Assembly: GCA_963666985.2 (NCBI GenBank)
Contig: CAXXIA010000002.1
Coordinates: forward strand, 1,920,001 to 1,984,000
Direction of reading: 5' to 3'
DNA from: Spirochaetia bacterium
GTDB lineage: Bacteria; Spirochaetota; Spirochaetia; DSM-2461
Length of the DNA: 64,000 bases
Shown: positions 1-18,249 of the stretch, piece after piece
Numbering within the stretch: the first letter of the stretch is position 1
Layout: the number at the start of each line of letters is the position of its first letter
Notes under the pieces: model-generated
Told to the model about the DNA's origin: nothing
Databases searched by the model: none
The model's input: only the letters and a program-made list of their open reading frames with translations
Made by a program: the position numbers and the translations under genes

Positions 1-103
1 TAGTAAACTGTTAAGTGAATTAGAGTTCATATTAAGTCCATTAGAATCACGTCCTGTGATTCTAATGCATTTTTTATTGGCTCTTGGCTGGATTTCATCG
101 TAA

Positions 104-233
104 AACAGATGTTATGAGGTTCCGGCTGGCTATCGCCAACCTTCACCCAAATTGGCTTTTGTCATGTTGTTTGCGTTGGCAAACAACACGCCAATCCTTC
201 GGAACAGCCAACTTCTCATAACATCGGGCCGTT
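104..233 (+). repeat. attC-like repeat R0 (subtype B)
   Basis: AAC-A-GATGTTATGAG ... CTCATAACATC-GGGCC-GTT; same subtype as 6866-7013. Confidence 0.85.
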
Positions 234-302
234 ATTCGAAAAAATCTTTAACGGTAGAAAATCAATAACAGAAAGTAAGAATGCAATCGTATTACACAAG
301 GC

Positions 303-1040
303 TTAAGCGAGAATCCCAGGAATGATTAATATAAAAACAAGAAGATTTCCTATACCGTGGATTATTATCCCAATCCAAGTATTTTGATGCTTCTGTACTA
401 AATATGGAACTGCTAAGGATACTGGAATCAAAGAGATAAACGACCAAGGCATGAACATATGTACTAATAAATTCCACAATATCCCATTTACAAGCCATGC
501 CCACTTTCCAAATACTTTTTCCTGTAGTGGTAACGCATATCCTCTCCAAAGGAGTTCTTCCGCCCCGATATTGACTATTAACCATCCCAGCCAAAAGCCG
601 ACAATCCACCATTGGTCAGCTAAAGGAACCCCGAAAAAAGTTGTAAGTCCATCTGCGATTTGCAGTCCTGGATGGAAAAGTTCTGGTGTGAATTCTGGGA
701 CATGAAAAAAAGAATAGTTCATTAAGAAATGTCGAGTTGGCGCAAGACCCAGCTCAAGAGTCTGAACGCCAAGAAAACCAATAATAATCCAGAGCCAAGT
801 TTTACCCGATATCTTTCCAAATCTAAATCTGCTTATGAAATTTATATTTCTTTGTTTGTTGGATACAAAACATGTCAAGATAATAAACAATATCAATAAA
901 ATCGGAATCCATAGTGATAGGGAATAGCTGATGATTAATGGCCATCCTATTTTTGTAAGGTAGGGAACCAGAACTCTTGCGCCTAGAAACATAAGAATTC
1001 CAGGAATTCCGAAGAACACAAGAGACTGAATCAGATTCAT
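303..1040 (-). CDS. CPBP (CAAX/Abi) family intramembrane glutamic endopeptidase; cassette gene, inverted
   Basis: EELLWRG (EExxxR) motif, HxxxN (HGIGN), multiple TM segments. Start set at MNLIQ; the ORF is open to 1112. Confidence 0.85.
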   Translation of the reverse strand: MNLIQSLVFFGIPGILMFLGARVLVPYLTKIGWPLIISYSLSLWIPILLILFIILTCFVSNKQRNINFISRFRFGKISGKTWLWIIIGFLGVQTLELGLAPTRHFLMNYSFFHVPEFTPELFHPGLQIADGLTTFFGVPLADQWWIVGFWLGWLIVNIGAEELLWRGYALPLQEKVFGKWAWLVNGILWNLLVHMFMPWSFISLIPVSLAVPYLVQKHQNTWIGIIIHGIGNLLVFILIIPGILA

Positions 1041-1197
1041 TTTTCTTGAATTACAAAAAATAGAAAAGATGTTCATAAGAAGATGGTTACATGATTTAGC
1101 GGTAGAACTCAAGTTTTTAAATATTTTGCATGTGGTATATTTTTAATGTGACATAAGTAAAAGTTGGTTTTGAATAGATTTAACGATTTCTTCGAAT

Positions 1198-1395
1198 AAC
1201 AGCTGTTGATGCGCTCCGGCTGAAAATGAGATTTTCAGCCTTCGGGGCTTCGCCCAAATTTGCCTCTGTCATAGATTTTGCGAAAGGCCCGTGGCTATGA
1301 TACGATATCTTCAGTAAAAGGTTAGTGGTGTTATGATCGCAAAATCTCCGCCAGTCGCTTCGCGAGCGGCAAACTTCGCATACCAGCGGGCCGTT
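1198..1395 (+). repeat. attC-like repeat R1 (subtype A1)
   Basis: AAC-AGCTGTTGATGCG ... ACTTCGCATACCAGC-GGGCC-GTT. Confidence 0.9.
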
Positions 1396-1646
1396 TAGTG
1401 AAAAAACAGGAATATCATACAAGCCTCGCCATCCATGGCTCGGCTCTTGTTTCTTTCAATGAAGAAGGAACGCCGTGTAGTGAAAGAGTTTCTGAATCTA
1501 GAAAGGTTATTCTTAAATTCCCTCGAAGGAGAAAATAGATTAAAAAAAACCCTTAATCTATGCAGCAAGAACGATTGGCAATTTAGGAAATAGAATGTTC
1601 TTCAATATAGTATTAACTAAGAGCTGAAATACTAGTAATAAGGAGA

Positions 1647-2348
1647 ATGGTTATGACCGTTTCAAAAATCAGATACTGGGCTATGAAACGTAAACAAGAG
1701 GATCGAAAAGCAAATTTGCTATCTCGTAAAGCTCTATTTGGTTCCATCGTTTTCGGTATTACAACATTTGGTAGAGACGAACACAAGAGATCAATAAAAA
1801 TATTCAGGCCAAAGAATATTAATCAATTGCTTATAAGTGACATAACGCTCTTTGAACTGTCTTGCTATGCAATGATGCGAATTGAACAGTGGCTAGACAG
1901 GAAGGCAAGTCAGGAAGTGGATCAAACGGAAACCCCCTTAGACCTGCAAAAGACCGATGAAGAGATTACTGACCTTGTTGATGAAATCTATTCCAAATGG
2001 GAAAAGTTAGGAAAAAGTATACACTACGAGTTCATAGAACTGTATACGGATATATTTCAATCAAATCAGATTAAAGATATCTTTCAGGCAAGATTTGAAG
2101 AATATCGAAGAATGGTTGTCGCTTTAGAAATCACAGATACTGAGCAATATCACAAAGCAATCTCAACATTGTCCAGGATGTCAAATCAATACCTTCCAGT
2201 CTCACAGTTCAACTATGAGAAACTGCCTGTAATGCTCGGGTCCGCTTTAGAAGATATGGGATTCCGAGCGGAAATGACAGGATGGGAAATTCACATGATG
2301 CCGGCAATATTGAATACAATAGAAAAAGCTTCTCATTTTCTCATGTAA
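1647..2348 (+). CDS. Hypothetical protein (cassette gene)
   Basis: 233-aa ORF with AAGGAG just upstream; sole long ORF between R1 and R2. Confidence 0.75.
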   Translation: MVMTVSKIRYWAMKRKQEDRKANLLSRKALFGSIVFGITTFGRDEHKRSIKIFRPKNINQLLISDITLFELSCYAMMRIEQWLDRKASQEVDQTETPLDLQKTDEEITDLVDEIYSKWEKLGKSIHYEFIELYTDIFQSNQIKDIFQARFEEYRRMVVALEITDTEQYHKAISTLSRMSNQYLPVSQFNYEKLPVMLGSALEDMGFRAEMTGWEIHMMPAILNTIEKASHFLM

Positions 2349-2362
2349 TGAAACCTAGTATC

Positions 2363-2391
2363 CATTGGTAGCACGTCGTGTGCTACCAATG
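2363..2391 (+). terminator. Perfect 12-bp hairpin after the cassette gene (possible terminator)
   Basis: CATTGGTAGCAC-GTCGT-GTGCTACCAATG; no U-tract. Confidence 0.4.
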
Positions 2392-2428
2392 AAATCGAAA
2401 ATTGATTCAATGACCTGTTTCTTCACTA

Positions 2429-2619
2429 AACAGCTGTTGATGCGCTCCGGCGCCAGGGCGCCTTCGGGGCTTCGCCCAAATTTGCCTCTGTCATAGATTT
2501 TGCGGAAGGCTGGCGACTATGGTAGGATGACTTTCAGTAAATGGCTAGTTTTGTTCTGATAAGCAAAATCTCCGCCAGTCGCTGCGCGAACGGCAAACTT
2601 CGCATACCAGCGGACCGTT
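2429..2619 (+). repeat. attC-like repeat R2 (subtype A1)
   Basis: Same conserved ends; GGACC spacer before GTT. Confidence 0.9.
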
Positions 2620-2696
2620 AATTGAAATGGCGAAAAATCTCACCTCGCCGTCCTGGCTCGGTAGTAGTAAAATGTATAGAAAACGATTGAAAGGAT

Positions 2697-3566
2697 TTGT
2701 ACAATAACGTGAAAATACTCTCTACAAGAAAGACCTCTGCACTAATCGAGGAAATTGTCACAGAGTCAAAAAATTTTGTGCTCATTGTCAGTCCATACTT
2801 AAAAATATCGGACTCGTTGTACGAGCGTCTGGTTAGAAAACTAAATTTAGGAATCAGAGTTGTTTTACTTTTTGGCAAAGTCGACTCCAATTTTAGTCAG
2901 TATCAAAAACTTCGAGACCATAACAAGTCATCAATATTTTTTCTAGACAAACTACATGCAAAGATCTACGCAAACGAGGACATAGTTCTTGTTAGCAGTA
3001 TGAATTTACATTCATATTCAGAAATCAACAACTGGGAAATCGGTTTGCAAGAGGATAGCTCATCTTCTGAATATAAAAATATATTTAATGAAGTACTCTT
3101 GATGCTAAAAGCATCTACGTACAAATTTGGTGATAAAGATTATTCAATCATCGATTTGTCAAATGGGGCTCATGAATTTATAGGGATTCTCCAAGAAACA
3201 ATTAAAACTATTGATTTTCGTGTTATAGAAATACAAACCGGATGGGATGATGAAAAGTCCTACACCTTCAAAGGTACTTACCAACCAAAACAAGAAATTT
3301 CGATGATATTCAATTTCAACCATTTGGCGATTTCTAGTGACAGTGAAGATGACCTGCGGAGTATTTGTGAAACCATTGAGTCAAAGGGCTGCAAATCAGG
3401 TTTGAGATGCTTCCAAAAGAGCTATGAGAGGGAGCTAGCGATTTATCCACCTGATGGATTCAACGCACGTCGTGATAACATGGAGATAAAAGAATATCGC
3501 GCTATGTGGATTTCAATATTGGAAGACATTGAAAAGGTGCTCTGCGACAGCCTACAGGCTTCATAG
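2697..3566 (+). CDS. Phospholipase-D (HKD) superfamily nuclease-domain protein (cassette gene)
   Basis: IVSPY, LHAKIY and SSMNL...NWEIG motifs typical of PLD-like nuclease domains. True start may be GTG 2709. Confidence 0.8.
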   Translation: MYNNVKILSTRKTSALIEEIVTESKNFVLIVSPYLKISDSLYERLVRKLNLGIRVVLLFGKVDSNFSQYQKLRDHNKSSIFFLDKLHAKIYANEDIVLVSSMNLHSYSEINNWEIGLQEDSSSSEYKNIFNEVLLMLKASTYKFGDKDYSIIDLSNGAHEFIGILQETIKTIDFRVIEIQTGWDDEKSYTFKGTYQPKQEISMIFNFNHLAISSDSEDDLRSICETIESKGCKSGLRCFQKSYERELAIYPPDGFNARRDNMEIKEYRAMWISILEDIEKVLCDSLQAS

Positions 3567-3633
3567 ATAGTAGTCTCGCGAACATCGTGTTCGCGAGATA
3601 GGTTTAAGACTTTCGGATCTCGCCACTTCACTT

Positions 3634-3838
3634 AACAGCTGTTGATGCGCTCCGGCCGCTAAAGGTGTTTAGCGGCCTGCGGGGCTCCGCCCAAATTTCG
3701 CTTTGGCCATGGTTCTTGCAGATGCGTTTGTGAAAGTGGTGTGATAAGTTGAAGAGCGTACGGGCTTTCTTTTAAAGTGCAAGAACGCATGCCAACCGGC
3801 TTCGCCGGACGCGAAACTTCGCATACCAGCGGGCCGTT
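3634..3838 (+). repeat. attC-like repeat R3 (subtype A2)
   Basis: Conserved ends; internal GGCCGCTAAA/TTTAGCGGCC hairpin. Confidence 0.9.
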
Positions 3839-4554
3839 AGGTGAAATCAAAAGATTCATATTTTTAGGATTAACTATAAATGACATCTGAACACAAAGAA
3901 TTTATAAAGCGATCTATAAAAGTATTGCAGCATGATGAACGAATAATGGGTCTTGCTGTTGCCGGTTCTTTCATTACTAATGCAATGGATGAATTTTCTG
4001 ATATCGATTTTGTTATTGCCGTTGATTCAAAATATTACAATGAAATCTTAGATAAGAGAATTGAAATCGCTAAGAGTTTAGGACATTTGCTTTCTGCATT
4101 TACGGGAGAACATGTTGGAGAACCCCGATTGCTTATCTGCCTGTATAACAATCCCTTGATTCATGTTGATTTAAAATTCGTTTCGATTGATGAGATTGCA
4201 TATAGAGTTGAAGATTTCAAAGTATTGTGGGAACGTGACAATTGTATATCCGATAAACTTAAAGAAGAATCAGCACAATTTCCTAATCCAGATCTTCAAT
4301 GGATTGAAGATAGATTTTGGATTTGGATCCATTATGGAGCAGGAAAGATTGGTCGCGGTGAGATTTTTGAGACGATCGAATTTATTTCTTATTTGCGTCA
4401 GAACGTGATAGGCCCGTTAATCTTGATGAAGAAGGGAAAACGCCCCCAAGGTGTACGGAAGATTGAATTCGATGCGCCAGAATATTTGGAACGATTGAAG
4501 TCAACAATAGCGATTCATGAAAAGTGAACCACACCGGGATTCCCGGAGGCTGTT

Positions 4555-5466
4555 TTAGTTGAGTCCGGCAGCTACTGCCGAACATTCTTCCTGTTCATAA
4601 TACATCGATTCAAACTTCGCCGGGGGGATATCTCCAAGCGGCTCCATGATTCGGCGGTTGTTGTACCAGTCCACCCAGTCCAGGGTTTCCAATTCAACCT
4701 GTTCTATTCTCTGCCATGAGCTCCTCCGGTGGATGACTTCGGCTTTGTAGAGACCGTTGATAGTCTCAGCCATTGCGTTATCGTACGAGTCTCCTTTGCT
4801 CCCAACCGAAGGCTCGATACCGGCCTCTGTCAATCGATCCGAATATCGAAACGAAAGATACTGCCTTCCACGATCACTGTGATGAATCAGACCGTCGACT
4901 ACTTCCCTGGCCCAAAGCGCCTGATTGAGCGCATCAAGAGTAAAGTCGGTTTTCATCGACCGGCTAGCTCGCCAACCGACGATCATCCGGGAGAAGACAT
5001 CAATGATGAAGGCAACATAGACGAAGCCCTGCCAGGTGGAAACGTAGGTGAAATCCGCAACCCAAAGCCGATTCGGCTTGGAAGCTGTGAAATCTCTGTT
5101 AACCAGATCCTCGGGTCTTTCATCTTTCGGTGACGGGAAGGTGGTCTTGGTTCCCTTGCCCCGAATGACGCCTCTGAGACCCATAGAACGCATAAGACGT
5201 TCGACGGTACACCTGGCTACATGGAGATGCTTCTCATTTCTAAGAACCTTCCAGACTTTCCTGGCGCCGTAGACTCTACGGTTCTCATCCCATATCTCCT
5301 GAATCTCATTTTTAAGAAACCGGTCTCGACGTGTTCGATCAGGTTCGAGTTCAGGATCAGCTTCTCTTGCTTTTTGTAGATGATAGGTCGACGGAGCAAT
5401 CGGCAGTGATTTGCAGATAGGCTCGACTCCATATTCTTCCCGGTTCTCATTGATAAAACCGACCAT
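4555..5466 (-). CDS. IS3 transposase OrfB (DDE)
   Basis: WVADFTYV, HHSDRGRQY, DNAMAETING motifs. Confidence 0.95.
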   Translation of the reverse strand: MVGFINENREEYGVEPICKSLPIAPSTYHLQKAREADPELEPDRTRRDRFLKNEIQEIWDENRRVYGARKVWKVLRNEKHLHVARCTVERLMRSMGLRGVIRGKGTKTTFPSPKDERPEDLVNRDFTASKPNRLWVADFTYVSTWQGFVYVAFIIDVFSRMIVGWRASRSMKTDFTLDALNQALWAREVVDGLIHHSDRGRQYLSFRYSDRLTEAGIEPSVGSKGDSYDNAMAETINGLYKAEVIHRRSSWQRIEQVELETLDWVDWYNNRRIMEPLGDIPPAKFESMYYEQEECSAVAAGLN

Positions 5467-5786
5467 CAGTTCTTTCGGCGGTCGAGCTCCGCCTGGGCAA
5501 AATACGCTGAGGCCTTTCGAAGAATTTCGTTGGCAGTACGAAGTTCTCGATTCTCCTTTTCCAGCTCTTTAAGACGCTTACGCTCTTCACTGGTTAGACC
5601 ATCCCGCTGCCCTTCATCGATTTCTGCCTGCCGAACCCATTTCCGGAGTGTTTCGGGTGTACAGCCGATCTTAGCGGATATTGAACAAATCGCCGACCAC
5701 TGAGATTCGCTGTCCTTCTGCTTCTCAAACACCATCCGGACAGATTGTTCCCGGACTTCCTTGGGGTACCTTGTTTGCTTTCCCAT
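5466..5786 (-). CDS. IS3 transposase OrfA
   Basis: HTH plus leucine-zipper (ELEKENRELRTANEIL); stop overlaps the orfB start. Confidence 0.95.
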   Translation of the reverse strand: MGKQTRYPKEVREQSVRMVFEKQKDSESQWSAICSISAKIGCTPETLRKWVRQAEIDEGQRDGLTSEERKRLKELEKENRELRTANEILRKASAYFAQAELDRRKN

Positions 5787-6017
5787 GACACAATCCTCTC
5801 AAGTAATTGTGCCTCCGGTAAAGCCGGGGTGGTTCAAAGAGATCTTGTTATGAAGTTTTGAAGAATATTGTTTTGCTTTATAGGGAACTACGAGAAGAAC
5901 TCCAAAATCTAGATTTCAATTACAATTCAGAGACAGAAGAAGTAGCCATGGCTTATTTGGATGATATCTATAAGAGGTGTGTATAAGAGAATGAGAAAGT
6001 ATTGCTTGATTTCACCT

Positions 6018-6225
6018 AACAGCTGTTGATGCGCTCCGGCCGCTAAAGGTGTTTAGCGGCCTTCGGGGCTTCGCCCAAATTTCGTTTTGGCATGGCATCT
6101 TGCAGATGTGTTTTCAAAAGTGATGTGATAAGCTAAAAAAACAAACAGGCTTTCTGCTAAAAGCAAGAGCGCATGCCAACCGGCTTTCAGCCGGACACGA
6201 AACATTCGCATAACAGCGGGCCGTT
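6018..6225 (+). repeat. attC-like repeat R4 (subtype A2)
   Basis: Conserved ends and internal stems. Confidence 0.9.
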
Positions 6226-6252
6226 TGGTGAAATTCGTATAAGGAATAAAGA

Positions 6253-6849
6253 ATGATAGCAAGTGTAATATTGTCTCATCCATATCCTAAAAGTTTTAAT
6301 CATGCAATTTTCAAAACAGTGATACGGGCATTAAAAGAGAAACAAGTAAAAGTATATAACCATGATCTTTATGAAGAAGGCTTTAATCCTATTCTCACAA
6401 AAGAAGAATTAGGGTCTGATCAATCAACTGATAAATTAGTCAATCAGTATGCAAAAGAGTTAGTCGAATCAGACTCTTTATTTTTTATACATCCAAATTG
6501 GTGGGGACAACCACCAGCAATTATGAAAGGATATATCGATAGAGTTATTCGTCCTCCTTATGCTTATGATTTCCCAAAAGATGACTCAGGTGGTGGATTA
6601 CCTTTAGAAAAATTGAATGGAAAATATGGAATAGTTTATAATACTGGGAACACCGAGAGCAAACGAGAAAAAAATTACTTTGGTGATCCATTAGAAAATA
6701 TCTGGGAAAAATGTGTTTTTGGTTTTTTAGGAATTAAAAAATATAAAAGAAGACTCTTTTGTGTAATTGCTGATAGCACAGAAGAAGAAAGGCTAGAGTG
6801 GCTAAAGAAAATTGAAGAAGATATAGATCTAGTTTTGGAAGAGAAATAA
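6253..6849 (+). CDS. NAD(P)H-dependent quinone oxidoreductase (flavodoxin-2 fold); cassette gene
   Basis: SHP..SFN, HPNWWGQPPAIMKGYIDRV motifs. Confidence 0.9.
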   Translation: MIASVILSHPYPKSFNHAIFKTVIRALKEKQVKVYNHDLYEEGFNPILTKEELGSDQSTDKLVNQYAKELVESDSLFFIHPNWWGQPPAIMKGYIDRVIRPPYAYDFPKDDSGGGLPLEKLNGKYGIVYNTGNTESKREKNYFGDPLENIWEKCVFGFLGIKKYKRRLFCVIADSTEEERLEWLKKIEEDIDLVLEEK

Positions 6850-6865
6850 AAGCCGAACTTCACCA

Positions 6866-7013
6866 AACAGATGTTATGAGGTTCCGGCTGGCTGACGCCA
6901 CCCTTCACCCAAATTAGCCTTTTGAAAAACTTCGGAGAAATTGCAAAGCAATTTTCCTCAGCTTTTCAAGCCCACAAGGGGCTCAGGCTAACTTCTCATA
7001 ACATCGGAACGTT
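6866..7013 (+). repeat. attC-like repeat R5 (subtype B)
   Basis: AAC-A-GATGTTATGAG ... CTCATAACATC-GGAAC-GTT. Confidence 0.85.
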
Positions 7014-7036
7014 AAACGCCACTCGAACTTTGTCGT

Positions 7037-7170
7037 TGGAGAGACCAGGACATCCTTTACATTTTAGGTACAGGACATCGTTTACACTAAACAAGCTTGA
7101 ACGAAGCATTTGAGCCCATCAACAGAAGGGGTAAAGGCATAGTTTTTCCAGTCAATTTCTCCTAATCTCG
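7037..7170 (-). mobile_element. Remnant end of an IS481-family element
   Basis: Close but diverged match to 13552-13685 (ACCAGGACATCCTTTACATTTTAGGT.CAGGACATCGTTTACACTAAACAAG...), including the transposase C-terminal codons. Confidence 0.85.
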
Positions 7171-7306
7171 AACAGTAAGAAAAATTGCTAGTGTGGTGAA
7201 CTTGAAATAGAAATCACCTTATAAATAGCCCTTCAAAAGGGGCTCATAACCTGTACTGCTATAATTAGGCAAAATTGATTTATGAATCAAATATGATTGT
7301 ACGACA

Positions 7307-7993
7307 TTAGGAAATAGGCGTCTTGGAATGATCGGCCACTTTTTCAGCTGTCATGTCAAGAACTCCATAAATTGCCTCTTGCCGATATTCGTCGGTCAAT
7401 ATTTGTTCTTTTTCTTTTGCCTCTTTACCAAAATTCATGAATGGGTATTTCAACTGAACTGTATATGTCTCATAAAGGCTTGCTACCGATTGCCTATTGT
7501 GAACGTCTACTATGTTGCCTCTCGATTTCCCAAACATATTTTCAGGTGTATTATTTCCAATCTTGTTCTGTTCCCAGTATTCTTGAATATATGCTTCACA
7601 AAGGATTACGTAATCAGCAGACAACTTTGAACCTATATCAACCACAATGGCCAATTCATTTTCTTCTAATTGATATGAATTTTCTACATCCGGCATATCT
7701 TCAGTAATGTATATTGGATACTCGTTAATAGTAGACTTAAGTTCTGCATAGCTAATAATTTCTATTAAGGTTGCTTCTGCAATTTTCTCCGCTAGGTATT
7801 TTGCGTTTCTCTCATGATTGCTGTCGTCAAGTGGTGAAACAACAAGCAATCTTTTGCCTGTGAAGTCAATTTCGTCTAAGAATTTCGTTTGATTTCTTAG
7901 TCGACCAACAGCCCCAAGTGTTGAGCAACCAACGAAAATTACAGGTATAATAGCAAAAAAAAGAACAAAGCGCTTTTTCATTTTAGTCTCCAT
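7307..7993 (-). CDS. Putative lipoprotein; cassette gene, inverted
   Basis: MKKRFVLFFAIIPVIFVG-C signal peptide/lipobox. Confidence 0.75.
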   Translation of the reverse strand: METKMKKRFVLFFAIIPVIFVGCSTLGAVGRLRNQTKFLDEIDFTGKRLLVVSPLDDSNHERNAKYLAEKIAEATLIEIISYAELKSTINEYPIYITEDMPDVENSYQLEENELAIVVDIGSKLSADYVILCEAYIQEYWEQNKIGNNTPENMFGKSRGNIVDVHNRQSVASLYETYTVQLKYPFMNFGKEAKEKEQILTDEYRQEAIYGVLDMTAEKVADHSKTPIS

Positions 7994-8096
7994 AAGATAT
8001 CGAAGATAATAGATATAAACTTATTAAAAACGAATTCATTTGAATGTCAACCACATTTTTCTGTTGGGATAATTTATAGAACTTCGAGCGGCGTTT

Positions 8097-8294
8097 AACA
8101 GCTGTTGATGCGCTCCGGCTGATAACGAGGTTATCAGCCTCCGGGCTCCGCCAAATTCGTCTTTGTCAGAGATTTTGCGTGAGTCTAACGTGTATGGTAA
8201 AATGCTTTTCAGTAAACGGTTGAGTTTGTTCTGAGAGGCAAAATCTCCGCCAACCGCTACGAGGACGACGAACTTCGCATACCAGCGGACCGTT
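8097..8294 (+). repeat. attC-like repeat R6 (subtype A1)
   Basis: Conserved ends; GATTTTGC/GCAAAATC inner stem. Confidence 0.9.
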
Positions 8295-9272
8295 AGTCGC
8301 AAATACAATGATATACATTTCTAGCATGGTCGTACCACACAATATCTCGAGGATTGCAGATATCGATGAATGTCATTTCGAGAATCCTCCAATGATTGTT
8401 TTCGACACAAACATTTGCATAGATTTATACAAACTGTGGTGCAACCCAAGGCTAATGCGCAATGAACAGCACAAACAGTTTATGGAATTGGTCGATCTGT
8501 GCACAAAAATATACAAGAATGGTTGGCTATTTTTTCCCCATTTTGGAATAGAAGAAGCTTCTTTCAGTGAATTTTCAAATCGAGGAGAGTCTGACAAAGA
8601 GCAGCATATGCACATGGCCTTATTGAACTTGCTAGGTAGTGATCTGCAAAGCTTTCTAGCACATATCAATTCAACTTTCAGTAGCATTGAGCACTATACT
8701 CGTCGTGTAGATTCAAAATCATATATACGGCGAATAAGGAATGATATTATTTTTAGTGATCTTTTACCTTTGAAATACTGCTCAATGATGAAATTGTTTA
8801 TTCTTTGTAACGACATAGATAGTTACAAAGAGCGTTTGTTTGAATTCTTTAATTATCTACTGAATAACATAAATTGTGTTGACGTAGGATCAATCATCAC
8901 AGCGACATTTCTTACTAGCAGAAAGAAGATGAAAATGCTTTTCCATCGGCTACAAAACAGCTCGAGCGCAGGTTTAAGGAGTATTTTAAATTCTGCGATT
9001 GATCTTACGTTTATTGAGCTCTCAAGTCGTATTTACCTTGAGGGCCTAACACCAATATTTTGCTCACAGAATAAACTTCTTATCGAAATAGAGAATGCTA
9101 CAAAAGTGCAAATTTTTCAAAATGGTATTCCTGCAAAAGGTATTTATGCAGATCGGCTTCCGGAAAACGAGGTCGTTATGGAGTTTATAGAGTTTATGAA
9201 AAAGTCGCTAGAAAAAAGGGATTCGTATATAAAACACTTCAATAAGCATCATGTTTGGGCAGAAATAGCTAA

Positions 9273-10296
9273 GGCGGATTGAAATTCCTAATGCACGAAA
9301 ATAGAAGTGCAAGGAGTTTCAATGAGTTACCGCAGAATAACATTTCAAGAACGAATGTCTATCTTCCAAATGCGTTATGTTGAGAATCTGAAAATATCAG
9401 AAATCGCATATCGTTCAGGACGCAATCCATCGAGTATTTCAAGAGAATTGCAAAAAGGAGATGATTCAGGAAGTTATAATCCCTTTCTTGCTGAATACTT
9501 GTCTTTAAAGCAACGAAGATATCAATGTCCAAAATTAAAAATTAGTTCAGAAGTCTGGAAAGAAATAAAATCAAAATTGGAACTTCGATGGTCACCTGAT
9601 GAAATTGCTCATTGGTGGAATCAACTATATCCTGAGAAAAGCATGAGTGGAAGAACCATCTATAATTATGTCCATTTCCATATGAGGGGTGAACTAAAGA
9701 AACTGGCGTTAAATGATCTTCGCCGACGTGGAAAGTCTCCCAAAAAGCCAAAGAATGACGGTAGAGGCAAGTTAAAAGACATAACCTTGATCGATGAGAG
9801 ACCGCCGGAAGTAGAAGGCCGAGAAGTTCCAGGCTATTGGGAGGGAGACTTAATCATAGGAAAAGACCATAAGTCGGCTATCTGTGTCATTGTGGAAAGG
9901 CAAACACGATTTATCCAAATGGATCTTCTTCTCAAATACGATGCAGCAACTGTTCGAAAAACAATTGAGAAACGATTTAAGCGGATAGAACCTCATCTAA
10001 GAAAGACGTTGACCTTGGATCAAGGTAAGGAAAATAGTGAGCACAAGCGGTTGGCTGAAAAAGCTGAAATCGATGTTTTCTTTTGTCACCCCCATTCGCC
10101 ATGGGAAAAAGCATCATGCGAAAATACAAATGGTTTGATCCGTGATATGCTTTATGAAATTGATGATTTTCGGAATATCGACCAATATTATGTGGGTCGA
10201 ATAGCCCGATTGTTAAATGAAAGGCCAAGAAAAACTTTGGAGTATAAAACGCCGAAGCAGGCATTGGCTGAATTGCGTTAGGAATCTCAATCCGCC
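9273..10296 (+). mobile_element. IS30-family insertion sequence, 1024 bp
   Basis: IRs GGCGGATTGAAATTCCTAATGCA / TGCGTTAGGAATCTCAATCCGCC; TAA direct repeats on both flanks. Confidence 0.92.
9322..10281 (+). CDS. IS30 transposase
   Basis: GYWEGDLIIG, TLDQGKE, PHSPWEKASCENTNGLIR, LNERPRKTL motifs. Confidence 0.95.
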   Translation: MSYRRITFQERMSIFQMRYVENLKISEIAYRSGRNPSSISRELQKGDDSGSYNPFLAEYLSLKQRRYQCPKLKISSEVWKEIKSKLELRWSPDEIAHWWNQLYPEKSMSGRTIYNYVHFHMRGELKKLALNDLRRRGKSPKKPKNDGRGKLKDITLIDERPPEVEGREVPGYWEGDLIIGKDHKSAICVIVERQTRFIQMDLLLKYDAATVRKTIEKRFKRIEPHLRKTLTLDQGKENSEHKRLAEKAEIDVFFCHPHSPWEKASCENTNGLIRDMLYEIDDFRNIDQYYVGRIARLLNERPRKTLEYKTPKQALAELR

Positions 10297-10336
10297 TAAT
10301 CTAGAAAAGGAAATAGTCAAACGTGTATCTGCGACT

Positions 10337-10542
10337 AACAGCTGTTGATGCGCTCCGGCGTCAACTAGCGTTGCCGCCTCCGGGCCTACGGCCAAATTTC
10401 GCTTTGGACATGGCTCTTGCAGATGCAGACTCAGAAGTGATGTGATACAGTCAAAGGCGAACAAAGCATTGCTGAAGCCGTTGCAAGAGCGCATGCCAAC
10501 CGGCTTTGCCGGACGCGAAACTTCGCATAACAGCGGGCCGTT
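10337..10542 (+). repeat. attC-like repeat R7 (subtype A2)
   Basis: Conserved ends and internal stems. Confidence 0.9.
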
Positions 10543-10682
10543 TTGTGCATTTCGAGAATTCTCATAGACGGAATATTTTAGATTTCTCCAATAAGATCTT
10601 TATTGTTTATCAAATCCCCTCAGCTTGACATTTATAGTATGACGTTTAAATGTAGACGCATTAACAAACACAGGAGAATTCT

Positions 10683-12056
10683 GTGAACGGATTCATCATA
10701 TTATTGATTCTTTACGCAATCTTAGGGACTGTAATCAGTATCTTCGTTATGCGGCGAAAGCCATCTCAAGAAGATTACTTTATTGGGGGACGGGCCGTTG
10801 GATGGATCGTCTCGGCGCTCACCTACGCCGCTACAACATACTCGGCTTTTATGATGGTTGGCCTTGTCGGTCTATCATATAACACAGGCATTGGCGCCTT
10901 CATTTTTGAGACAGTCTATCTTCTTGCCACTTTGATCTTATTGTCAGTTTACGGGCAAAAGATTTGGACGATGGGAAAAGAAAAAGGCATGGTCTCACCG
11001 ATGGAGCTTTTTACAAACCGCTATGGACCTATTACCGGCGGAGTTGGAGCGATAATCGCTTTTATTGCGCTTATTCCTTATACGTCGGTGCAAGTGATAG
11101 GACTTGCCCTTATTCTCCAGAACTATGGCATAACCTTCAATCAAGGAATCATCATTGCCGTCGGCATTATTGCAGTCTGGACATTTCTTGGAGGTCTACG
11201 AGGCGTTGTGTTAACAGATGCTATTCAGGGATTTCTGATGATGGCCATAGCCATTGCAGCGGTTATCTGGACGGGAAGTCGGTATAAAGGGGTTGAACTT
11301 TCGACGTTCCCGAACAATGTTTGGACACCAATATTCTTTATCAATCTGACTCTCCCCTGGGCGTTTTTTGCTCTCACGAATCCGCAAGTGGTTCAAAGGC
11401 TTTTCATCATTAAGGACAAGCGTGACTTTCGGAAGATGCTCATTCTTTTTGGTGTGTTTGGCCTGGTTTTTACTACAATCGTAACGGCAATTGGAGTCTC
11501 GGCGAAGTTTGGTACGCTTCAAGGAATCCTCCCGGTAGTCTCCGATCAAGATGGTGTTATTGTTGCAGTGATGTCGCAAATGAGAAATTGGCTGGCAATT
11601 CCTTTAGCCCTGAGCATTATTTTTGCATCAGTATCAACGGCCAACTCAATAATCCTCACGTTATCCTCAATGATGACAAGGGATGTTTTTCGTCAAAAGA
11701 ACAATGTTTGGCTGGGCCGAGGTATCATCATCGGACTCGCAGTATTGGTAGGTCTTTTTTCCTTAACACGCCCAAACTATCTGGTGCAGCTTTCAGTCGC
11801 ATCGTCACGAATCTTGATGTGCTTTCTTCCCCTTATGTTTTCATTGTTTCACGGAAAGCGAGGAGGAGAGGTTACAGGCATTCTAACTCTTGTTGGTGGA
11901 GCAATATCAGCGATTCTTTTCGGTCTGATTGCATCTTCATACAGCTCGCTTCTTACTCTCGGAGCCGTAGTTTTGCTTTATTTAATCGGACTGGCTATTG
12001 AGAATGGATTCTTCTCTTGCAAGATTTTTCATCGGAAATCAAGAACTGAGACATAA
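10683..12056 (+). CDS. Sodium:solute symporter family transporter (PutP/PanF-like); cassette gene
   Basis: DYFIGGR, ATTYSA, GGLRGVVLTDAIQG, PQVVQR motifs; many TM helices; AGGAG RBS. Confidence 0.9.
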   Translation: MNGFIILLILYAILGTVISIFVMRRKPSQEDYFIGGRAVGWIVSALTYAATTYSAFMMVGLVGLSYNTGIGAFIFETVYLLATLILLSVYGQKIWTMGKEKGMVSPMELFTNRYGPITGGVGAIIAFIALIPYTSVQVIGLALILQNYGITFNQGIIIAVGIIAVWTFLGGLRGVVLTDAIQGFLMMAIAIAAVIWTGSRYKGVELSTFPNNVWTPIFFINLTLPWAFFALTNPQVVQRLFIIKDKRDFRKMLILFGVFGLVFTTIVTAIGVSAKFGTLQGILPVVSDQDGVIVAVMSQMRNWLAIPLALSIIFASVSTANSIILTLSSMMTRDVFRQKNNVWLGRGIIIGLAVLVGLFSLTRPNYLVQLSVASSRILMCFLPLMFSLFHGKRGGEVTGILTLVGGAISAILFGLIASSYSSLLTLGAVVLLYLIGLAIENGFFSCKIFHRKSRTET

Positions 12057-12116
12057 ACATGTGATTAGTTTGAATGGCCAAGACGGCGAATCATTTTGAA
12101 TAATAGAAATGCACAA

Positions 12117-12313
12117 AACAGCTGTTGATGCGCTTCGGCGGTAACGAGGTTACCGCCTCCGGGGCTTCGCCCAAATTTGCCTCTGTCACAGATTTTGCAT
12201 ATGTCTACCGCTGTGGTAATATAAATTGTAGTTATCGTTTGAGGTTGTGAAGAATCGCAAAATCTTCGCCAGTCGCTTCGCGAATGGCAAACTTCGCATA
12301 CCAGCAGAACGTT
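12117..12313 (+). repeat. attC-like repeat R8 (subtype A1)
   Basis: Conserved ends; AGAAC spacer. Confidence 0.9.
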
Positions 12314-12484
12314 TTACGAAAAACCTATAGAAACTTAATGTATAAAAATACCGTCATATACGTGAAATGAAAATTCATTGTCTTATCGGTCAATAACGCA
12401 TTAGATAACAAGTCATAGTAAGCATACTGTTAGTAAATACACATATAAGATTACTGTAAAAATAGAATAGGCAACTATCACCAT

Positions 12485-13198
12485 CTATATGTTTATTTTT
12501 GTTTCTAATATGGTATGGTCACTATAATTTTTAACCTTCCCATAATTCCAAGAAAATGTTTTTTCAACTGCAATTGATAGATCCTTGCTGACAAATATAT
12601 GATCATCTTGATAGTGATTTTCCTCTGACATATTGGCACCAAAAAAAGTCTGTGAATAAACGGGACAACACTCGTGAAAATGTAAACCAATTTTGTCAAA
12701 AATGTCACTAAAGAATCCATTTACCATAACCGTGTCAGCGTTGAAGTCTCCACCAATGATGAACCTACTTTTCGAACTAAGAACCGTTGCATTAAAAATG
12801 CTCTCAATGTGGCTTCTTATTGTATAGATACCGTCAGGAGATGTATTTGTATGTAGACTGCATAAGGTTATAGAAGTGCCATTATTGCTTTCGAATTCAA
12901 CGAAAACTTGTTTCCCTTTGTGTTTTTCAGAATCGATATATTTATCTGTAACATCCGAAATTGAGCCCGTTTTCAATATATTTTCACTAAAATATAAGCA
13001 TGTACCCCATTTTGGTAGCTCAGTTGTTTTGCAAGTCTCACTTTCATGAAAAATCGCCATTTCAGTAAATCTTTCAGGGACTACGGTTTCCTGAAGAAAT
13101 GCGACATCTGGACATACAGATGATGTTAAATAATCCCAAGCCTGGTCATTAGTTCCATTCTGTTGCCAATAGTTCATATTCCATGTGACAAGTTTCAT
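12485..13198 (-). CDS. Endonuclease/exonuclease/phosphatase (EEP) family protein; cassette gene, inverted
   Basis: TWN, LQE, GGDFN, DHIF, SDH motifs; GAGGAG RBS. Confidence 0.88.
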   Translation of the reverse strand: MKLVTWNMNYWQQNGTNDQAWDYLTSSVCPDVAFLQETVVPERFTEMAIFHESETCKTTELPKWGTCLYFSENILKTGSISDVTDKYIDSEKHKGKQVFVEFESNNGTSITLCSLHTNTSPDGIYTIRSHIESIFNATVLSSKSRFIIGGDFNADTVMVNGFFSDIFDKIGLHFHECCPVYSQTFFGANMSEENHYQDDHIFVSKDLSIAVEKTFSWNYGKVKNYSDHTILETKINI

Positions 13199-13325
13199 TA
13201 AATACTCCTCTTAAGGAGTTTATCATTGCTCATAGAGATTACGAGAATAAATGAGATGATTGAAGAGAAAGGATAAAGATTAAAATCTTTATTAGGGCAG
13301 ATGCGAGTCAATTAGTTTTTCGTAA

Positions 13326-13530
13326 AACAGCTGTTGATGCGCTCCGGCCGCTAAAAGTGTTTATCGGCCTTCGGGGCTCCGCCCAAATTTCGCTTTGGCC
13401 ATGGTTCTTGCAGATGCGTTCCTGGAAGTTGTGTGATAGGCTCAAATGCGAACAGGTTTTCCGTTGAAGTGCAAGAACGCATGCCAACCGGCTACGCCGG
13501 CCGCGAAACTTCGCATACCAGCGGAACGTT
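13326..13530 (+). repeat. attC-like repeat R9 (subtype A2)
   Basis: Conserved ends and internal stems. Confidence 0.9.
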
Positions 13531-13551
13531 ATATGTAATGCCCGATTTTCA

Positions 13552-14891
13552 GTGAGCGACCAGGACATCCTTTACATTTTAGGTCCAGGACATCGTTTAC
13601 ACTAAACAAGTTTAAACGAAGCATTTGAACCCATCAACAGAGGGTATAAATGCAAATGTTTTCCGATCAATTTCTCCTAATCTTAAATTGTCAAACCAGA
13701 CGGTAAAAGTCTCATCTTCATTTTCTCGAAGACCAACTTGGTATCCAACAAAGACATAACTGACGAAAATCCTGTGCCGGTCTATGGTCACCGCCCCACG
13801 ATTATTAATCATTCTCACCTCATATCCGGGTGGATAAATCACCTGTGGAATCTGAGAAGGGAAGGGCCGTTTGGACTTTGTGTAAACACTTCCGGGAGTC
13901 TGCATTTTAAGAGCTTCATGAGGTCGAACACTGTTGAACTGATTTCTCCAGACATCAAAATGCGCCTGATGTTCAGAGAGGTTACCCTGAATCTGTCCCT
14001 GTAATTCCCGTTTGATATCGGCATGCATTCTCTCATGCCCCCCGTTCTCACAAGGTCGTCCCGGAGTGATGCGATCAAGTTCGATTCCCAAGGCCAACCA
14101 CCAAACACTTAAGCGTGTGAGCCCCAGCAGGCCCTTCATGGAGGCAAAGGGAGGTCCGTTGTCGGACCTCATGACTCTGGGCATTCCATAGATGGAAAAG
14201 AGCTTCTCAAACTCGGTTCTAACTTCTTGTGTGTCAGCCTTTTGGAGTGCTTTGATGGTGAAGATGTATTTGGAAAACTCATCCCGAACGGTCAAAGGTT
14301 CACATCGTTCTCCCTCGGGAGTATACCACCATCCTTTGAAGTCCACGGTCCAGATGTCATTCGGCTGCTTGGCTTGAAGACGGCTCTGGATTCGCTGAGA
14401 TTTATTCTGCCGGCGCTTCTTTCGGTGCACCACCAGACCGGCTTTATCCAGGATGCGTTTCACGGTGGTCAGACTTGGACTCTCCTGGTGGGGATGTGTC
14501 TTCTGGTAGATATCGAGGATTTTCTTTGGCCCCCATTTGGTGTGTCGTGATTTGATTCGGACGATGTCGCAGATGACATTCTCCGGTGTCTGGTTAGGGC
14601 AGATACGAGGTTTCCTGGTTCTTTCATTCAGACCGGCGAGCCCTTCCTGAATAAACCGGTTCTTCCATTTAAGGCCTGTTGGCCGGGAGATCCCGTACTC
14701 GGCACAGAGGTCTTTCATACAGACATGGGGATCCATGGCCTTGAGGGCGAACTCGAATTTGACATCCATAATATTGGTCTCCTTCCACGGCATAACCAGC
14801 ACCTCGATAAGGGAAAGTGCTGATCATTTTAGTCCTTGTCGTGTAAAGGATGTCCTGGTACTCTCGTGTAAACGATGTCGTGGACCCGTAC
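13552..14891 (-). mobile_element. IS481-family insertion sequence
   Basis: Both ends carry two copies of CCA(G/C)GACATC(C/G)TTTACA in inverted orientation. Exact termini uncertain; no target duplication seen. Confidence 0.85.
13612..14793 (-). CDS. IS481-family transposase
   Basis: MPWKET start, WTVDFKG, SDNGPPF, NGGHERMH, RPHEAL motifs. Confidence 0.92.
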   Translation of the reverse strand: MPWKETNIMDVKFEFALKAMDPHVCMKDLCAEYGISRPTGLKWKNRFIQEGLAGLNERTRKPRICPNQTPENVICDIVRIKSRHTKWGPKKILDIYQKTHPHQESPSLTTVKRILDKAGLVVHRKKRRQNKSQRIQSRLQAKQPNDIWTVDFKGWWYTPEGERCEPLTVRDEFSKYIFTIKALQKADTQEVRTEFEKLFSIYGMPRVMRSDNGPPFASMKGLLGLTRLSVWWLALGIELDRITPGRPCENGGHERMHADIKRELQGQIQGNLSEHQAHFDVWRNQFNSVRPHEALKMQTPGSVYTKSKRPFPSQIPQVIYPPGYEVRMINNRGAVTIDRHRIFVSYVFVGYQVGLRENEDETFTVWFDNLRLGEIDRKTFAFIPSVDGFKCFV

Positions 14892-15713
14892 CGAATAAAA
14901 AGGGGATTCTTTTTAAGGTGTTTTTTTCTGTGGCAGCCTCATTCCCTTCATTTGAACAAGTAACAGAAACAGAACCCCTTTGAGTGGTCAGATCTTTTTA
15001 ACAGGCCTTCCTTCTCTTTGAACAAAACAGGTCGTTTTGATGCGGCTTTCTCCTCACCCCCTTCGCCTTTGAGATCATCTTCAAGAAAGAAACCAAAAGC
15101 ATCGGAATAAAACTCGCTTCGGGATCAGAAGCACTTAGTGATAAGGCGGTCGGTTCGGGAGAACTTGTGTCGTGAAGGTTTATGGTTTTTAACGATTATG
15201 GGAATCGCTCATGAGAAAATCCTTATCCGTTGATGGTTATCGCTTCGGGAAATGAGGCGCTCATGCTTTGATAGGTTCGCGAGAAAAGGGGTGGTAGCCT
15301 GAGAAGAATGAAGGGATGGAGATGAGAAGAATGGAGATTGTTTTCTCCGTGGTTTTGCCTTTGAGAATAAGGCTGAATGCTTTGGGGAATACCGGTGTAG
15401 AAGGAGAAGACGAACATTCGGATTTACAGAATCCGTCCTGAGAGAAAGAGGTCGGGAAAGGCGAATTGCATCGGATGATGGCCTGAGTAAAGTGATGAGG
15501 CGATGAAAGGGAGAATGGGGGTCAGTATGAGAGAATGGATAGCCATTTCGATGAATGAGTAAAAAGCGGAAGAGGGAAGTCTGTAAAAGGATGAATGAAG
15601 AAAAGATGAGAAGGAGAAGGGCAAGAAGAATCGAAACAAAGGCTCAGGTAAAACGGCGAGGATGGGTGAGGAGAAGGAGATGTCTTTATAGATGCGTCGT
15701 CCGAACTTCCTTT

Positions 15714-15843
15714 AACAGCTGTTGATGCGCGTCGGCCGCTAAAAGTGTTTAGCGGCCTTGGGCCGAGCGAAGGGAAACTATGAGTTTTATGATTTTTAGT
15801 AAAAGGGAAGAAACAAATTGGTTCGGCTCGGCCAAATTTCGCT
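15714..15843 (+). repeat. Truncated/degenerate attC-like repeat R10 (left arm only)
   Basis: AACAGCTGTTGATGCGC..GGCCGCTAAAAGTGTTTAGCGGCC and GGCCAAATTTCGCT are present, with an insertion between them; the CGCATACCAGC..GTT arm is missing. Confidence 0.8.
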
Positions 15844-15998
15844 GATGGTCGGTTTCGTATTGACGAATATTCGTGCTTTCAGTAACTTGCCACAAGTCAA
15901 GGATATACGGGGACTTCCCTGCCTTCTCTAAATCTTCATGAACGGGACTGGATGCGGTTGTGCGTGCAATTGGATTCAGTTTCCGGGGAGTTTTAGTG

Positions 15999-17159
15999 AT
16001 GCGATATAGGGAACCTTTTACAGTGTATCCCCGGCGTTTACCGTCGGGTCGAATCGTCTATTACTACCAGACATATGATGATCAGGATCGGCGGACGGCG
16101 CCTCGGAGTACGGGCAAGACTTCGAAGGGTGCGGCGCGGCGGTTTTGCTATGACTTGATGCGCACCGATTCGCTTATTCCGCTGAAAGGGCAGGAGCAGT
16201 TCTTCGCGGATTATGCGAAGGGCTGGTGGGAATGGGATACTTGCGAGTATCTGGCTTATCGGCGAACGCGGCGGCAGATCAGCCGGAGGTCTGCTTATAC
16301 GGCCCGGGGGAATTTGAAGAATCATATTCTTCCATTCTTTGCTAGGAAGCGTTTGAAGGAAATCACCCGGTACTCGATTGAACGCTGGATTGTCACCTTG
16401 CAGGATAAGGGCCTGAAGAACGCAACGATTAATGTGTGTCTGTCGAATCTTAGCGTCATGCTCGGCTTCGCGGTTCAGAAGGATCTTCTGAAAGACAATC
16501 CTGCGAAGAAGGTCACCCAACTGAAGAACACATCCAGGAGACGAGACATTCTTTCAAGCAAAGAGGTGCAGGAGCTCTTCAACGAGAATTCGATTGAGGA
16601 TCTCTGGGGACAGCGGATGTACTATGTCGCGAACCTCCTGGCGGCCTGTACAGGGATGCGTATCGGTGAGATTGTCGGCGTCCGCGGTTCAAGTCTCAAG
16701 GAGGGGTACATTTTGGTGGATAAGCAATACCGACCGCCCTATGGGCTTATCAATACCAAGACGAACGACATTCGGATCATTCCGCTTCCGGACGTACTGA
16801 TGGACGAGCTCCAATTGCTTCGCGAGAGTGCCAAGGTTGGAGACGGTTATCTCTTTTCGATCACTTCGGGGGAGAAGCCGGTGATGGGACAGACGATCAA
16901 TGAGAAGCTGCGCCGGGCTATGGTGAAGATCGGGATATCCGAAGAGCAGCAGGAGGAGCGGTATATTCCCTTCCACTCCTGGCGGCACTACTTCAACACG
17001 ATCTTGCGTAGCAACAACATCTCCGACGGCAAAGTGCAGAGCCTGACCGGTCACAAGAACAAGGTGATGACAGAGCACTATACCCACTTCAAACCGGAGG
17101 ATTACGCGGACGTAAGAGCTGTGCAGAACAAGATTATATCGTTTTCAAGAGCTGCCTAA
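15999..17159 (+). CDS. Tyrosine recombinase / phage-type integrase (not IntI)
   Basis: TGMRIGE (R), TKT (K), FHSWRH, LTGH, TEHY catalytic set intact. N-terminal arm-like and core-binding domains present; no IntI-type insertion before YLF. Confidence 0.92.
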   Translation: MRYREPFTVYPRRLPSGRIVYYYQTYDDQDRRTAPRSTGKTSKGAARRFCYDLMRTDSLIPLKGQEQFFADYAKGWWEWDTCEYLAYRRTRRQISRRSAYTARGNLKNHILPFFARKRLKEITRYSIERWIVTLQDKGLKNATINVCLSNLSVMLGFAVQKDLLKDNPAKKVTQLKNTSRRRDILSSKEVQELFNENSIEDLWGQRMYYVANLLAACTGMRIGEIVGVRGSSLKEGYILVDKQYRPPYGLINTKTNDIRIIPLPDVLMDELQLLRESAKVGDGYLFSITSGEKPVMGQTINEKLRRAMVKIGISEEQQEERYIPFHSWRHYFNTILRSNNISDGKVQSLTGHKNKVMTEHYTHFKPEDYADVRAVQNKIISFSRAA

Positions 17160-17623
17160 AACCGGGTGTCCGCTCTCGACGGATCCCGACCTGACCGGGG
17201 GCCCAAACCGAACCGGGCCGCCTCCCCGGCTGGGCGGGGGGGAATGGATTTACCCGTTACGCCAAATCTCCCGGCGCCGGCTATCCATTGCGATTTCGAC
17301 TTCAAGGAGTTCTTTTCCCGCCGACCGATACCGGGGATGTTCCGGCGGATAGAGTTCCCAGGTTTTCGGATGGCGGAACCCGTTGCACAGGATGAACCGC
17401 TTCCTTGCCCACAACTCATACAAACCTCTCATTTCATACCCTCCGAATGAGTGAAAAAATCTTCCATTGGGAAGAGAGCCGCCCCTTCCAACGGCTTGAC
17501 TGCCAATTCCTGGTCCCGGGAAGGTTCGGTCAAGGCCGCCGAAGGCGCCCGGAGGGCTCGGCCTTGACGGGTTCTTCCCGGGGCAGGACACTGCAAAAAG
17601 CCGGAGGAAGGAGCTACAACTGT

Positions 17624-17917
17624 ATGGGGTATCAGTTCGAAGAGAAGGAAGCCGAACTTTTTCGACGCATCGATGAGGTTTTATTCTATCTCTGGGATCC
17701 CATCGGAGTATCGACAGACATCAGTCCCAGGGACGAATACCGATCTTATCTTCCCAAGGTCTTCAACCTGGCGAATTCGGAAGGCGCCGAACAAGAACTT
17801 TCAGATTACCTCTACTCTGTTGAAACGAGTGACATCGGCGTACGCGGAAGCCGGCAGCGCTGCGATGAAATTGCCTCTTTGGTGACAAAGCCCGCAAGGA
17901 CATATCGAGAGAGTTAG
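17624..17917 (+). CDS. Small hypothetical protein (WDPIGV...DEY motif)
   Basis: 97 aa after an AGGAG; recognisable conserved-hypothetical motif. Confidence 0.65.
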   Translation: MGYQFEEKEAELFRRIDEVLFYLWDPIGVSTDISPRDEYRSYLPKVFNLANSEGAEQELSDYLYSVETSDIGVRGSRQRCDEIASLVTKPARTYRES

Positions 17918-18051
17918 GGAACTTCCTACCAATACGAAAAACCGATTATCGATACTCTCCCTTCCAAGAGAAGGCAATCCTTGACGTTGCTTTTCGCTTC
18001 GATGCGTCGCCGGAAAGGGCGGACGACTTTCCGGCGGCAAGGAGGTATCCC

Positions 18052-18249
18052 GTGGAAGAACTACTGACAGTGAAAGAGGCGGCGAAGGCCTTGAGACTGA
18101 AGCCGTCGACGATTTATGCGTATGCCGAGAAGGGGATTCTTCCTTGCACGAAGCTGGGGAGTCGGCTGCTGTTCCAGAAGTCGAGGCTTGAGGAATGGGT
18201 GGAGAAGAATTCGCATCCGGGGCAGACGCCGGGACGGTTCGATGGATGA
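18052..18249 (+). CDS. Excisionase-like HTH (HTH_17) DNA-binding protein
   Basis: LLTVKEAAKALRLKPSTIY...LEEWV; AGGAGG RBS. Confidence 0.85.
   Translation: MEELLTVKEAAKALRLKPSTIYAYAEKGILPCTKLGSRLLFQKSRLEEWVEKNSHPGQTPGRFDG

Follow-up and report, generated by a model that had tools for sequence, protein, structure and literature searches.

The 64,000-nt stretch analyzed here (hereafter the window; positions 1,920,001 to 1,984,000 of contig C2, CAXXIA010000002.1, in the Spirochaetia bacterium assembly GCA_963666985.2) contains a series of long, internally folded repeats. These repeats are very probably single-stranded DNA (ssDNA) recombination sites, similar to the attC sites of integrons, of an integron-like cassette array served by a divergent recombinase of 277 amino acids (aa) encoded about 142 kb upstream of the window. 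An earlier note on this DNA had described the repeat interior as a covarying multi-branched structure under selection, acting either as an ssDNA recombination substrate or as a structured RNA from the minus strand.

A two-ended pattern applied to the whole genome finds 86 intact copies of 137-277 nt, all on the plus strand and all in one block of approximately 155 kb (C2:1779209-1933534); in addition, an inserted element interrupts one further copy, and another, at window positions 15710-15843, is truncated. Ten of the intact copies are the repeats at 100-13534 of the window, the first of which starts outside the range covered by the earlier note (1198..13530). Repetitive extragenic palindromes and bacterial interspersed mosaic elements (REP/BIME) or miniature inverted-repeat transposable elements (MITE) would be dispersed over the genome in both orientations, whereas all 86 intact copies share one strand and one block. 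Of the 92 matches to a hidden Markov model (HMM) in the genome, 89 are inside the array, and the three outside are all partial. The exact 5' motif is specific for this genome (G000): 20 of 301 genomes have matches, with at most three in each genome other than G000. Decayed half-sites occur outside the array at C2:876579, 2130253, and 2674169 and at C1:803968; two of them keep the TGnTAnnnT box described below. The copies in the window, all on the plus strand, are listed here with their arm types and candidate extended -10 boxes.

100..237, plus strand: attC-like site of type B, 138 nt, without the extra base and without the promoter box; stem AATTGGCT/AGCCAACTT
1194..1399, plus strand: attC-like site, arm type T1; box TGATACGAT at 1298-1306
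2425..2623, plus strand: attC-like site, arm type T1; box TGGTAGGAT at 2520-2528
3630..3842, plus strand: attC-like site, arm type T2; box TGATAAGTT at 3742-3750
6014..6229, plus strand: attC-like site, arm type T2; box TGATAAGCT at 6126-6134
6862..7017, plus strand: attC-like site of type B, 156 nt, without the extra base and without the promoter box
8093..8298, plus strand: attC-like site, arm type T1; box TGGTAAAAT at 8195-8203
10333..10546, plus strand: attC-like site, arm type T2; box TGATACAGT at 10443-10451
12113..12317, plus strand: attC-like site, arm type T1; box TGGTAATAT at 12214-12222
13322..13534, plus strand: attC-like site, arm type T2; box TGATAGGCT at 13434-13442
15710..15843, plus strand: last site, truncated, 5' half only; distal end of the array

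The array extends over C2:1778054-1935843 and follows a simple junction rule. The last 7 nt of a copy are complementary to the first 7 nt of the next copy at 80 of the 85 junctions (10,000 shuffles: mean 5.2, maximum 14), whereas the last and first 7 nt of the same copy are complementary in 5/86 cases only. Complementarity to the core of the next copy is what characterizes circular cassettes that insert at a GTT core, and the observed pattern thus points to this mode of insertion. Cassettes present in duplicate follow different neighbours and start precisely at GTT, which marks the crossover boundary, and all 86 cores fit GTTWNNN. The first cassette matches an internal one without a difference over 1,366 nt, suggesting that the array was recently active.

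The recombinase gene (C2:1777133-1777966) heads the array and is transcribed from the opposite strand. Its product, a tyrosine recombinase, scores 220 bits with the IntI model TIGR02249 (cut-off 265), lacks the additional domain specific for IntI, and passes the cut-off of NF040815 (224.6 versus 220). The alignment with IntI4 falls into two blocks, with 22 residues where IntI4 has 65; the approximately 43 residues missing relative to IntI4 positions 181-245 are the insertion that defines IntI. The catalytic residues are intact, R133, K158, H222, R225, H248, and Y257 being invariant in 52 homologs, and the fold closest to the predicted model (pLDDT 91) is that of IntI4 (PDB 2a3v). No IntI above the cut-off was found in the genome assembly, which is 93% complete; the best match is the array-head recombinase itself. 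An attI-like core, GTTATAA, lies 88 nt from the recombinase start and is complementary to the inverse core of the first cassette. An insertion point is likewise found beside the integrase gene in two relatives, where the same short recombinase heads related sites and the core of the first cassette is 104 and 107 nt upstream. Another attI candidate, 4 nt from the start codon, was rejected because a duplicate cassette puts the core 83 nt further. The tyrosine recombinase encoded in the window (15960-17159) was also rejected as the array integrase, being of phage type (31 bits with TIGR02249) and situated at the distal end.

Covariation was analyzed in the 62 distinct short type-A copies among 82 distinct interiors, with long and type-B copies left out. 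From their alignment RNAalifold recovers, unguided, a branched minus-strand fold in which three side hairpins accompany the outer stem and the closing stem P2; 17 of its 35 pairs have compensatory changes. In the named structure of 42 pairs, 96.1% are paired and 17 pairs are compensatory; none of 500 shuffles is as high, and slid controls give 26-43%. The compensatory pairs fall in P2 (6/9), hairpin 1 (5/6), and hairpin 3 (3/4), while the core and the outer stem are nearly invariant and therefore little informative on structure. The AAC/GTT triplets closing the hairpin are found in 62/62 copies, although they were part of the search pattern. Much of the compensatory signal traces to a few shared types, and since such kin are not independent, linkage was additionally tested within one arm type. 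Among its 41 copies, 215 distant polymorphic column pairs have a median r2 of 0.02, and the two highest values, 0.61 and 0.60, belong to the two base pairs.

The closing stem of the inner domain covaries as the earlier note had described: it reads AATTTGCC/GGCAAACTT in the copies at 1194, 2425, and 12113, AATTTCGC/GCGAAACTT at 3630, 10333, and 13322, AATTCGTC/GACGAACTT at 8093, AATTGGCT/AGCCAACTT at 100, and AATTAGCC/GGCTAACTT at 6862, to which the copy at 6014 adds the concordant form TTTCGT/ACGAAA. All quoted pairings are present in the named copies, but AATTT/AACTT contains an A.C mismatch on the plus strand, and GGCGCC/GGCGCC of the first side hairpin can form no more than 5 bp, closing a loop of 4 nt. 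The extra base, said to be a G in one subtype and lacking in another, is present in 83/86 copies (G in 82, A in one) and absent from three. The proposed three subtypes are too few. The interiors combine six families of the first hairpin, two lengths of the second, and at least three arm types, and the 17 combinations among the 79 distinct type-A interiors make them mosaics; further, one cassette body occurs with several different site interiors. Selection on structure is supported by the covarying pairs and by the linkage within one arm type. The formula "structure, not sequence" is too strong, because the outer stem and the AAC/GTT core barely vary and the unpaired TGnTAnnnT box is kept.

Of the two molecules considered in the earlier note, the features of the repeats favor the ssDNA substrate, and minus-strand DNA is the most likely identity of the folded molecule. 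On the minus strand, hairpins 2 and 3 are capped by the heptamer GCGNAGC, which this strand carries in 75 of the 86 copies and the plus strand in a single copy; in the sites of relatives the counts are 26/34 versus 0. More generally, among 150 GC-rich triloops 125 have the form GNA when read on the minus strand and none does on the plus strand, the genome background being 6.7%. In DNA, mini-hairpins of the GCGNAGC type are much more stable than in RNA, and binding of single-stranded DNA-binding protein (SSB) to a related mini-hairpin is poor (PMC13037366). The A.C mismatch mentioned above is, on the minus strand, a G.T wobble in P2, invariant in 62/62 copies, which can pair on this strand only. 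According to the GC skew, the leading strand, rich in G, is the plus strand, and hence the minus strand is on the leading template, as is also the case in chromosomal integrons (PMC11551772).

Related sites were found outside this genome. The 3' site pattern is present in 14/37 genomes of the family, and 48 sites from ten relative genomes keep the branching and the internal loop of 1 nt opposite 5 nt, a geometry that the finder required. In short relative sites (80-99 nt) the junction is followed by a simple hairpin; long ones add hairpin 3 and the arm. Of the 48 sites, 33 score best without a bulge. One distant locus with at least three linked sites, in Flavobacterium aciduliphilum, has the same loop.

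We infer the following pathway. When single-stranded, the minus strand would fold into the AAC/GTT core, the 1x5 internal loop, and an outer stem of 11 bp, followed by a four-way junction of hairpin 1, hairpin 2, and P2 and, past P2, by a three-way junction of hairpin 3 and the long arm. The GNA-capped side hairpins may serve as fast and stable folding units that join the distant ends of a 200-270 nt site, and possibly act against SSB. The recombinase would cut at the core, with replication resolving the product as for attC. The interiors would reassort via recombination between copies, with selection keeping those combinations that still pair. As duplex, the apex that is unpaired in this fold would probably be an extended -10 promoter reading into the next cassette.

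Several observations weigh against the recombination-site interpretation. Whole-site energy picks no strand, the minus strand being stabler in 67/86 copies with DNA parameters and in 20/86 with RNA parameters; this dependence on parameters led us to drop folding energy as evidence on the strand. The consensus energies (-40.5 versus -39.1) do not decide the strand either, and hairpin-wide counts of wobbles, with the invariant G.T set aside, are low and point in mixed directions. Mismatches are present at one position of the outer stem in 41/62 copies and at one position of the arm in 34/62. The short recombinase has matches in 8/37 family genomes with an adjacent array in two only (several lie at contig ends), and three or more linked sites were seen at only 3/79 distant loci by a strict finder. 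Finally, the recombinase lacks the domain that is used to define integrons, a domain reported to be required for their recombination (PMC9668308). The incomplete assembly could also be missing a canonical IntI, which three of the five tested relatives carry. Sites that were merely divergent attC, served by such an IntI or by one in trans with the short recombinase as a bystander, are nevertheless the least likely of the explanations we considered: the site geometry departs from attC rules (PMC5027507), and both G000 and the relative G015, having no IntI above the cut-off, possess the short gene, the attI-like core, and the array in the same layout.

It is very unlikely that the repeats are structured RNA, whether a minus-strand transcript or an mRNA-stabilizing REP-like element, with covariation produced by RNA folding. 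The RNAalifold consensus is strong on either strand and the hairpins come after the stop codons of plus-strand cassette genes, but the GNA triloops are typical of DNA mini-hairpins, the repeats have no match in Rfam at either threshold (the only hit being ALIL, inside an IS3 insertion sequence), and neither the 7-bp junction rule nor the confinement to one array needs an RNA. Slightly less improbable, though still quite unlikely, is that the interior pairing is a mutational by-product, with template switching perfecting inverted repeats that are then inherited in blocks, and with selection on the outer stem only. Hairpin 1 indeed switches as whole blocks, identical cassette bodies carry different interiors, and most compensatory cells come from few shared types. 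However, pairs approximately 75-115 nt apart are the most linked of the 215 in a recombining set, the same branching is formed by different sequence in other genera, and strand-symmetric template switching would leave unexplained both the 75 to 1 bias of GCGNAGC and the invariant G.T.

The apical loop contains a promoter-like box. TRTGnTAnnnT occurs on the plus strand, once, in 80/86 copies and never on the minus strand (1.2 in shuffles); the remaining three type-A copies keep TGnTAnnnT, so that 83 of the 86 sites are boxed, and the three type-B copies have no box. It is oriented toward the next cassette and lies in the unpaired apex (pairing probability 0.18-0.33). All 79 distinct type-A interiors keep T-G-n-T-A-n-n-n-T amid 20 hexamers, all TAnnnT, in which the middle three bases vary. 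The loops do not align between arm types, and unanchored alignments give identical invariant box columns. Upstream of host genes the motif is found 40 times in sense and 15 times in antisense orientation (1,509 regions, crude gene calls), whereas control motifs are flat (244/229 and 152/143). Long relative sites have the box on the plus strand in 15/25 cases versus 2 (shuffles 3.9), and with an added TTG[AC] -35 at 16-19 nt in 14/25 versus 1. Twenty cassettes start no more than 80 nt past the core. We consider it rather probable that the apex box works as a promoter of the extended -10 type for the cassette that follows, a judgement that is made separately from, and held less firmly than, that on recombination.

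Alternatively, the box could be an ancestral remnant or the binding site of another protein, with the interior serving only as a folding scaffold; we regard this as a serious, if less favored, possibility. A sigma-70 consensus scan calls none of the eight window boxes, and the -35 position reads TTGCG or ATGCG, not TTGACA. The first ORF (open reading frame) is in reverse orientation in 22/86 cassettes and absent from 12 (crude ORF calls), type-B sites and 10/25 long relative sites lack the box, and the copies have common ancestry. Against such a remnant stand the constancy of the box in loops that cannot be aligned, the sense bias in the host, the -35 elements of the long relatives, and the cassettes beginning close to the core. 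A CRP-like site was discarded, as its spacing does not match the CRP consensus and it is absent from T1. The short relative sites, with the box on either strand (13 and 11 of 23), were dropped as uninformative. In 145-nt relative sites (L021:4619-17591 in G016 and L049 in G017), the box forms the tip of a perfectly paired hairpin, and the base of the arm, 18-19 nt upstream of the box, carries TTGACA.

If both the recombination sites and the promoters are as proposed, the array would represent a second integron class: a recombinase without the IntI insertion, and long branched ssDNA sites folded by DNA mini-hairpins, each also a promoter, so that all cassettes of the 155-kb defence-rich array are expressed wherever they lie, and the gene of an excised circle is transcribed from the circle itself. 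We put this forward tentatively, being nearly evenly divided on it. A promoter in each site would replace, for this class, the expression model based on distance from Pc. An array of 88 sites that is apparently active without the IntI domain would mark a class for which finders relying on the integrase cannot make complete calls. It may also reveal the way in which Xer-like enzymes gave rise to ssDNA recombination. The covarying GNA-capped interior offers a testable answer to how a site of 200-270 nt folds.

The cassettes and inserted elements of the window are as follows.

303..1112, minus strand: cassette ORF in reverse orientation, CAAX protease (Rce1-like)
1647..2348, plus strand: cassette ORF, 233 aa, no family
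2697..3566, plus strand: cassette ORF, PLD-like domain
3880..4527, plus strand: cassette ORF, nucleotidyltransferase, 3' end interrupted by the IS3
4555-5786, minus strand: IS3, containing the ALIL pseudoknot at 5392-5508
6253..6849, plus strand: cassette ORF, flavodoxin-like NAD(P)H oxidoreductase, start 30 nt past the core
7307..7993, minus strand: cassette ORF, 228 aa, no family, behind an IS481-end remnant at 7039
8308..9282, plus strand: cassette ORF, 324 aa, start 16 nt past the core; IS30 transposase next
9307-10281: IS30 transposase
10683..12056, plus strand: cassette ORF, sodium:solute symporter
12485..13198, minus strand: cassette ORF in reverse orientation, endonuclease/exonuclease/phosphatase family
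13612..14802, minus strand: IS481-family transposase, element end 26 nt past the core G

The nucleotidyltransferase has weak similarity to lincosamide nucleotidyltransferases, far under their cut-offs. In 10 of 13 genomic copies the end of the IS481-family element lies 26-28 nt past the core G (window 7039 and 13554, and eight more in C2:1798275-1886129), which suggests that this element targets the sites at a fixed distance. A two-ORF element at C2:1914740-1916950, putatively of the IS21 family, sits within the outer stem of one site, and its end sequence also truncates the decayed copy at C2:2130253. A prophage-like remnant closes the array distally: a phage-type integrase, a small helix-turn-helix ORF, and a terminase large subunit (window 15960-19659) directly follow the truncated last site.

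Elsewhere in the array, an 845-bp cassette without an ORF of 70 aa is present in five copies (C2:1784202, 1834404, 1835449, 1870640, and 1904190) with 94-97% identity and different site interiors. A gene-less 230-bp cassette, possibly regulatory, has eight copies, each with a 270-nt T3 site, one of them split by an insertion sequence (L042:18987-19255 and six more in C2:1797757-1906301). Hairpins rich in GC, of the CCATCCATGG type, are located 20-50 nt past the core in about 14 cassettes (in the window, 1420-1445 and 2641-2662); a role of such leader hairpins as insulators against read-in transcription was not supported, since they show no significant link to ORF orientation (2/15 versus 12/37, p=0.30). 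PADLOC models are matched by 18 of 76 scanned cassette proteins (E<=1e-8), including retron II-A, Sir2-Argonaute, IetAS, and restriction-modification, and such arrays are thus also a source of defence genes. The defence cassettes at L044:8101-11172, L044:17681-19538, L045:12988-16438, L046:3040-4101, and L046:16360-17262 contain a Sir2-Argonaute fusion, a retron II-A pair, IetAS, a type II methyltransferase, and a type IV restriction enzyme.

Judged by its sequence, the platform would work like a sedentary chromosomal integron, for instance that of Vibrio cholerae (VCR sites, VchIntIA/IntI4, 2a3v), with which it shares the AAC/GTT core and the junction rule, the divergent integrase and attI at the array head, the long branched terminal structure, the placement of the minus strand on the leading template, and the defence-rich cargo. 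Long branched terminal structures are already described for chromosomal attC sites (PMC5027507), so branching as such is not new. Yet it departs from integrons in the integrase domain, in spacer geometry, in the extrahelical bases, and in size. The integrase has 22 residues in place of the 65 of IntI4. The sites measure 137-277 nt compared to 57-141 bp for attC, their internal loop, here and in relatives, has 1 nt opposite 5 nt where attC has a spacer of 5-6 nt per arm, and the bottom strand carries one extrahelical C (82/86 copies), a T (1), or none (3), instead of two to three bases, usually G and T (PMC5027507). Further, only 17/86 cores fit GTTRRRY, in contrast to the RYYYAAC/GTTRRRY consensus of attC. 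The family whose cut-off the recombinase passes, NF040815, is labelled XerA-like "site-specific tyrosine recombinase/integron integrase", which is a family label only, and a literature search found no paper tying proteins of this type to cassette arrays; a search covering mainly papers outside subscription journals returned nothing on short-integrase arrays or on promoters within attC loops. The heptamer d(GCGNAGC) is the same as in the mini-hairpins of phage ssDNA origins and N4 vRNAP promoters (PMC13037366), and is embedded here in a recombination site, where its role would be the one proposed above. Finally, the candidate promoters resemble a promoter bridging one attC in Vibrio sp. DAT722 (PMC2945992) and gene-less promoter cassettes (10.1101/2023.11.21.568050), which express cassettes far from Pc. 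Such promoters are occasional and located in cassette bodies or at one junction, and the literature that could be searched does not describe them as a regular component of the site, whereas here the box lies within the loop of the site itself, in 83 of 86 copies.

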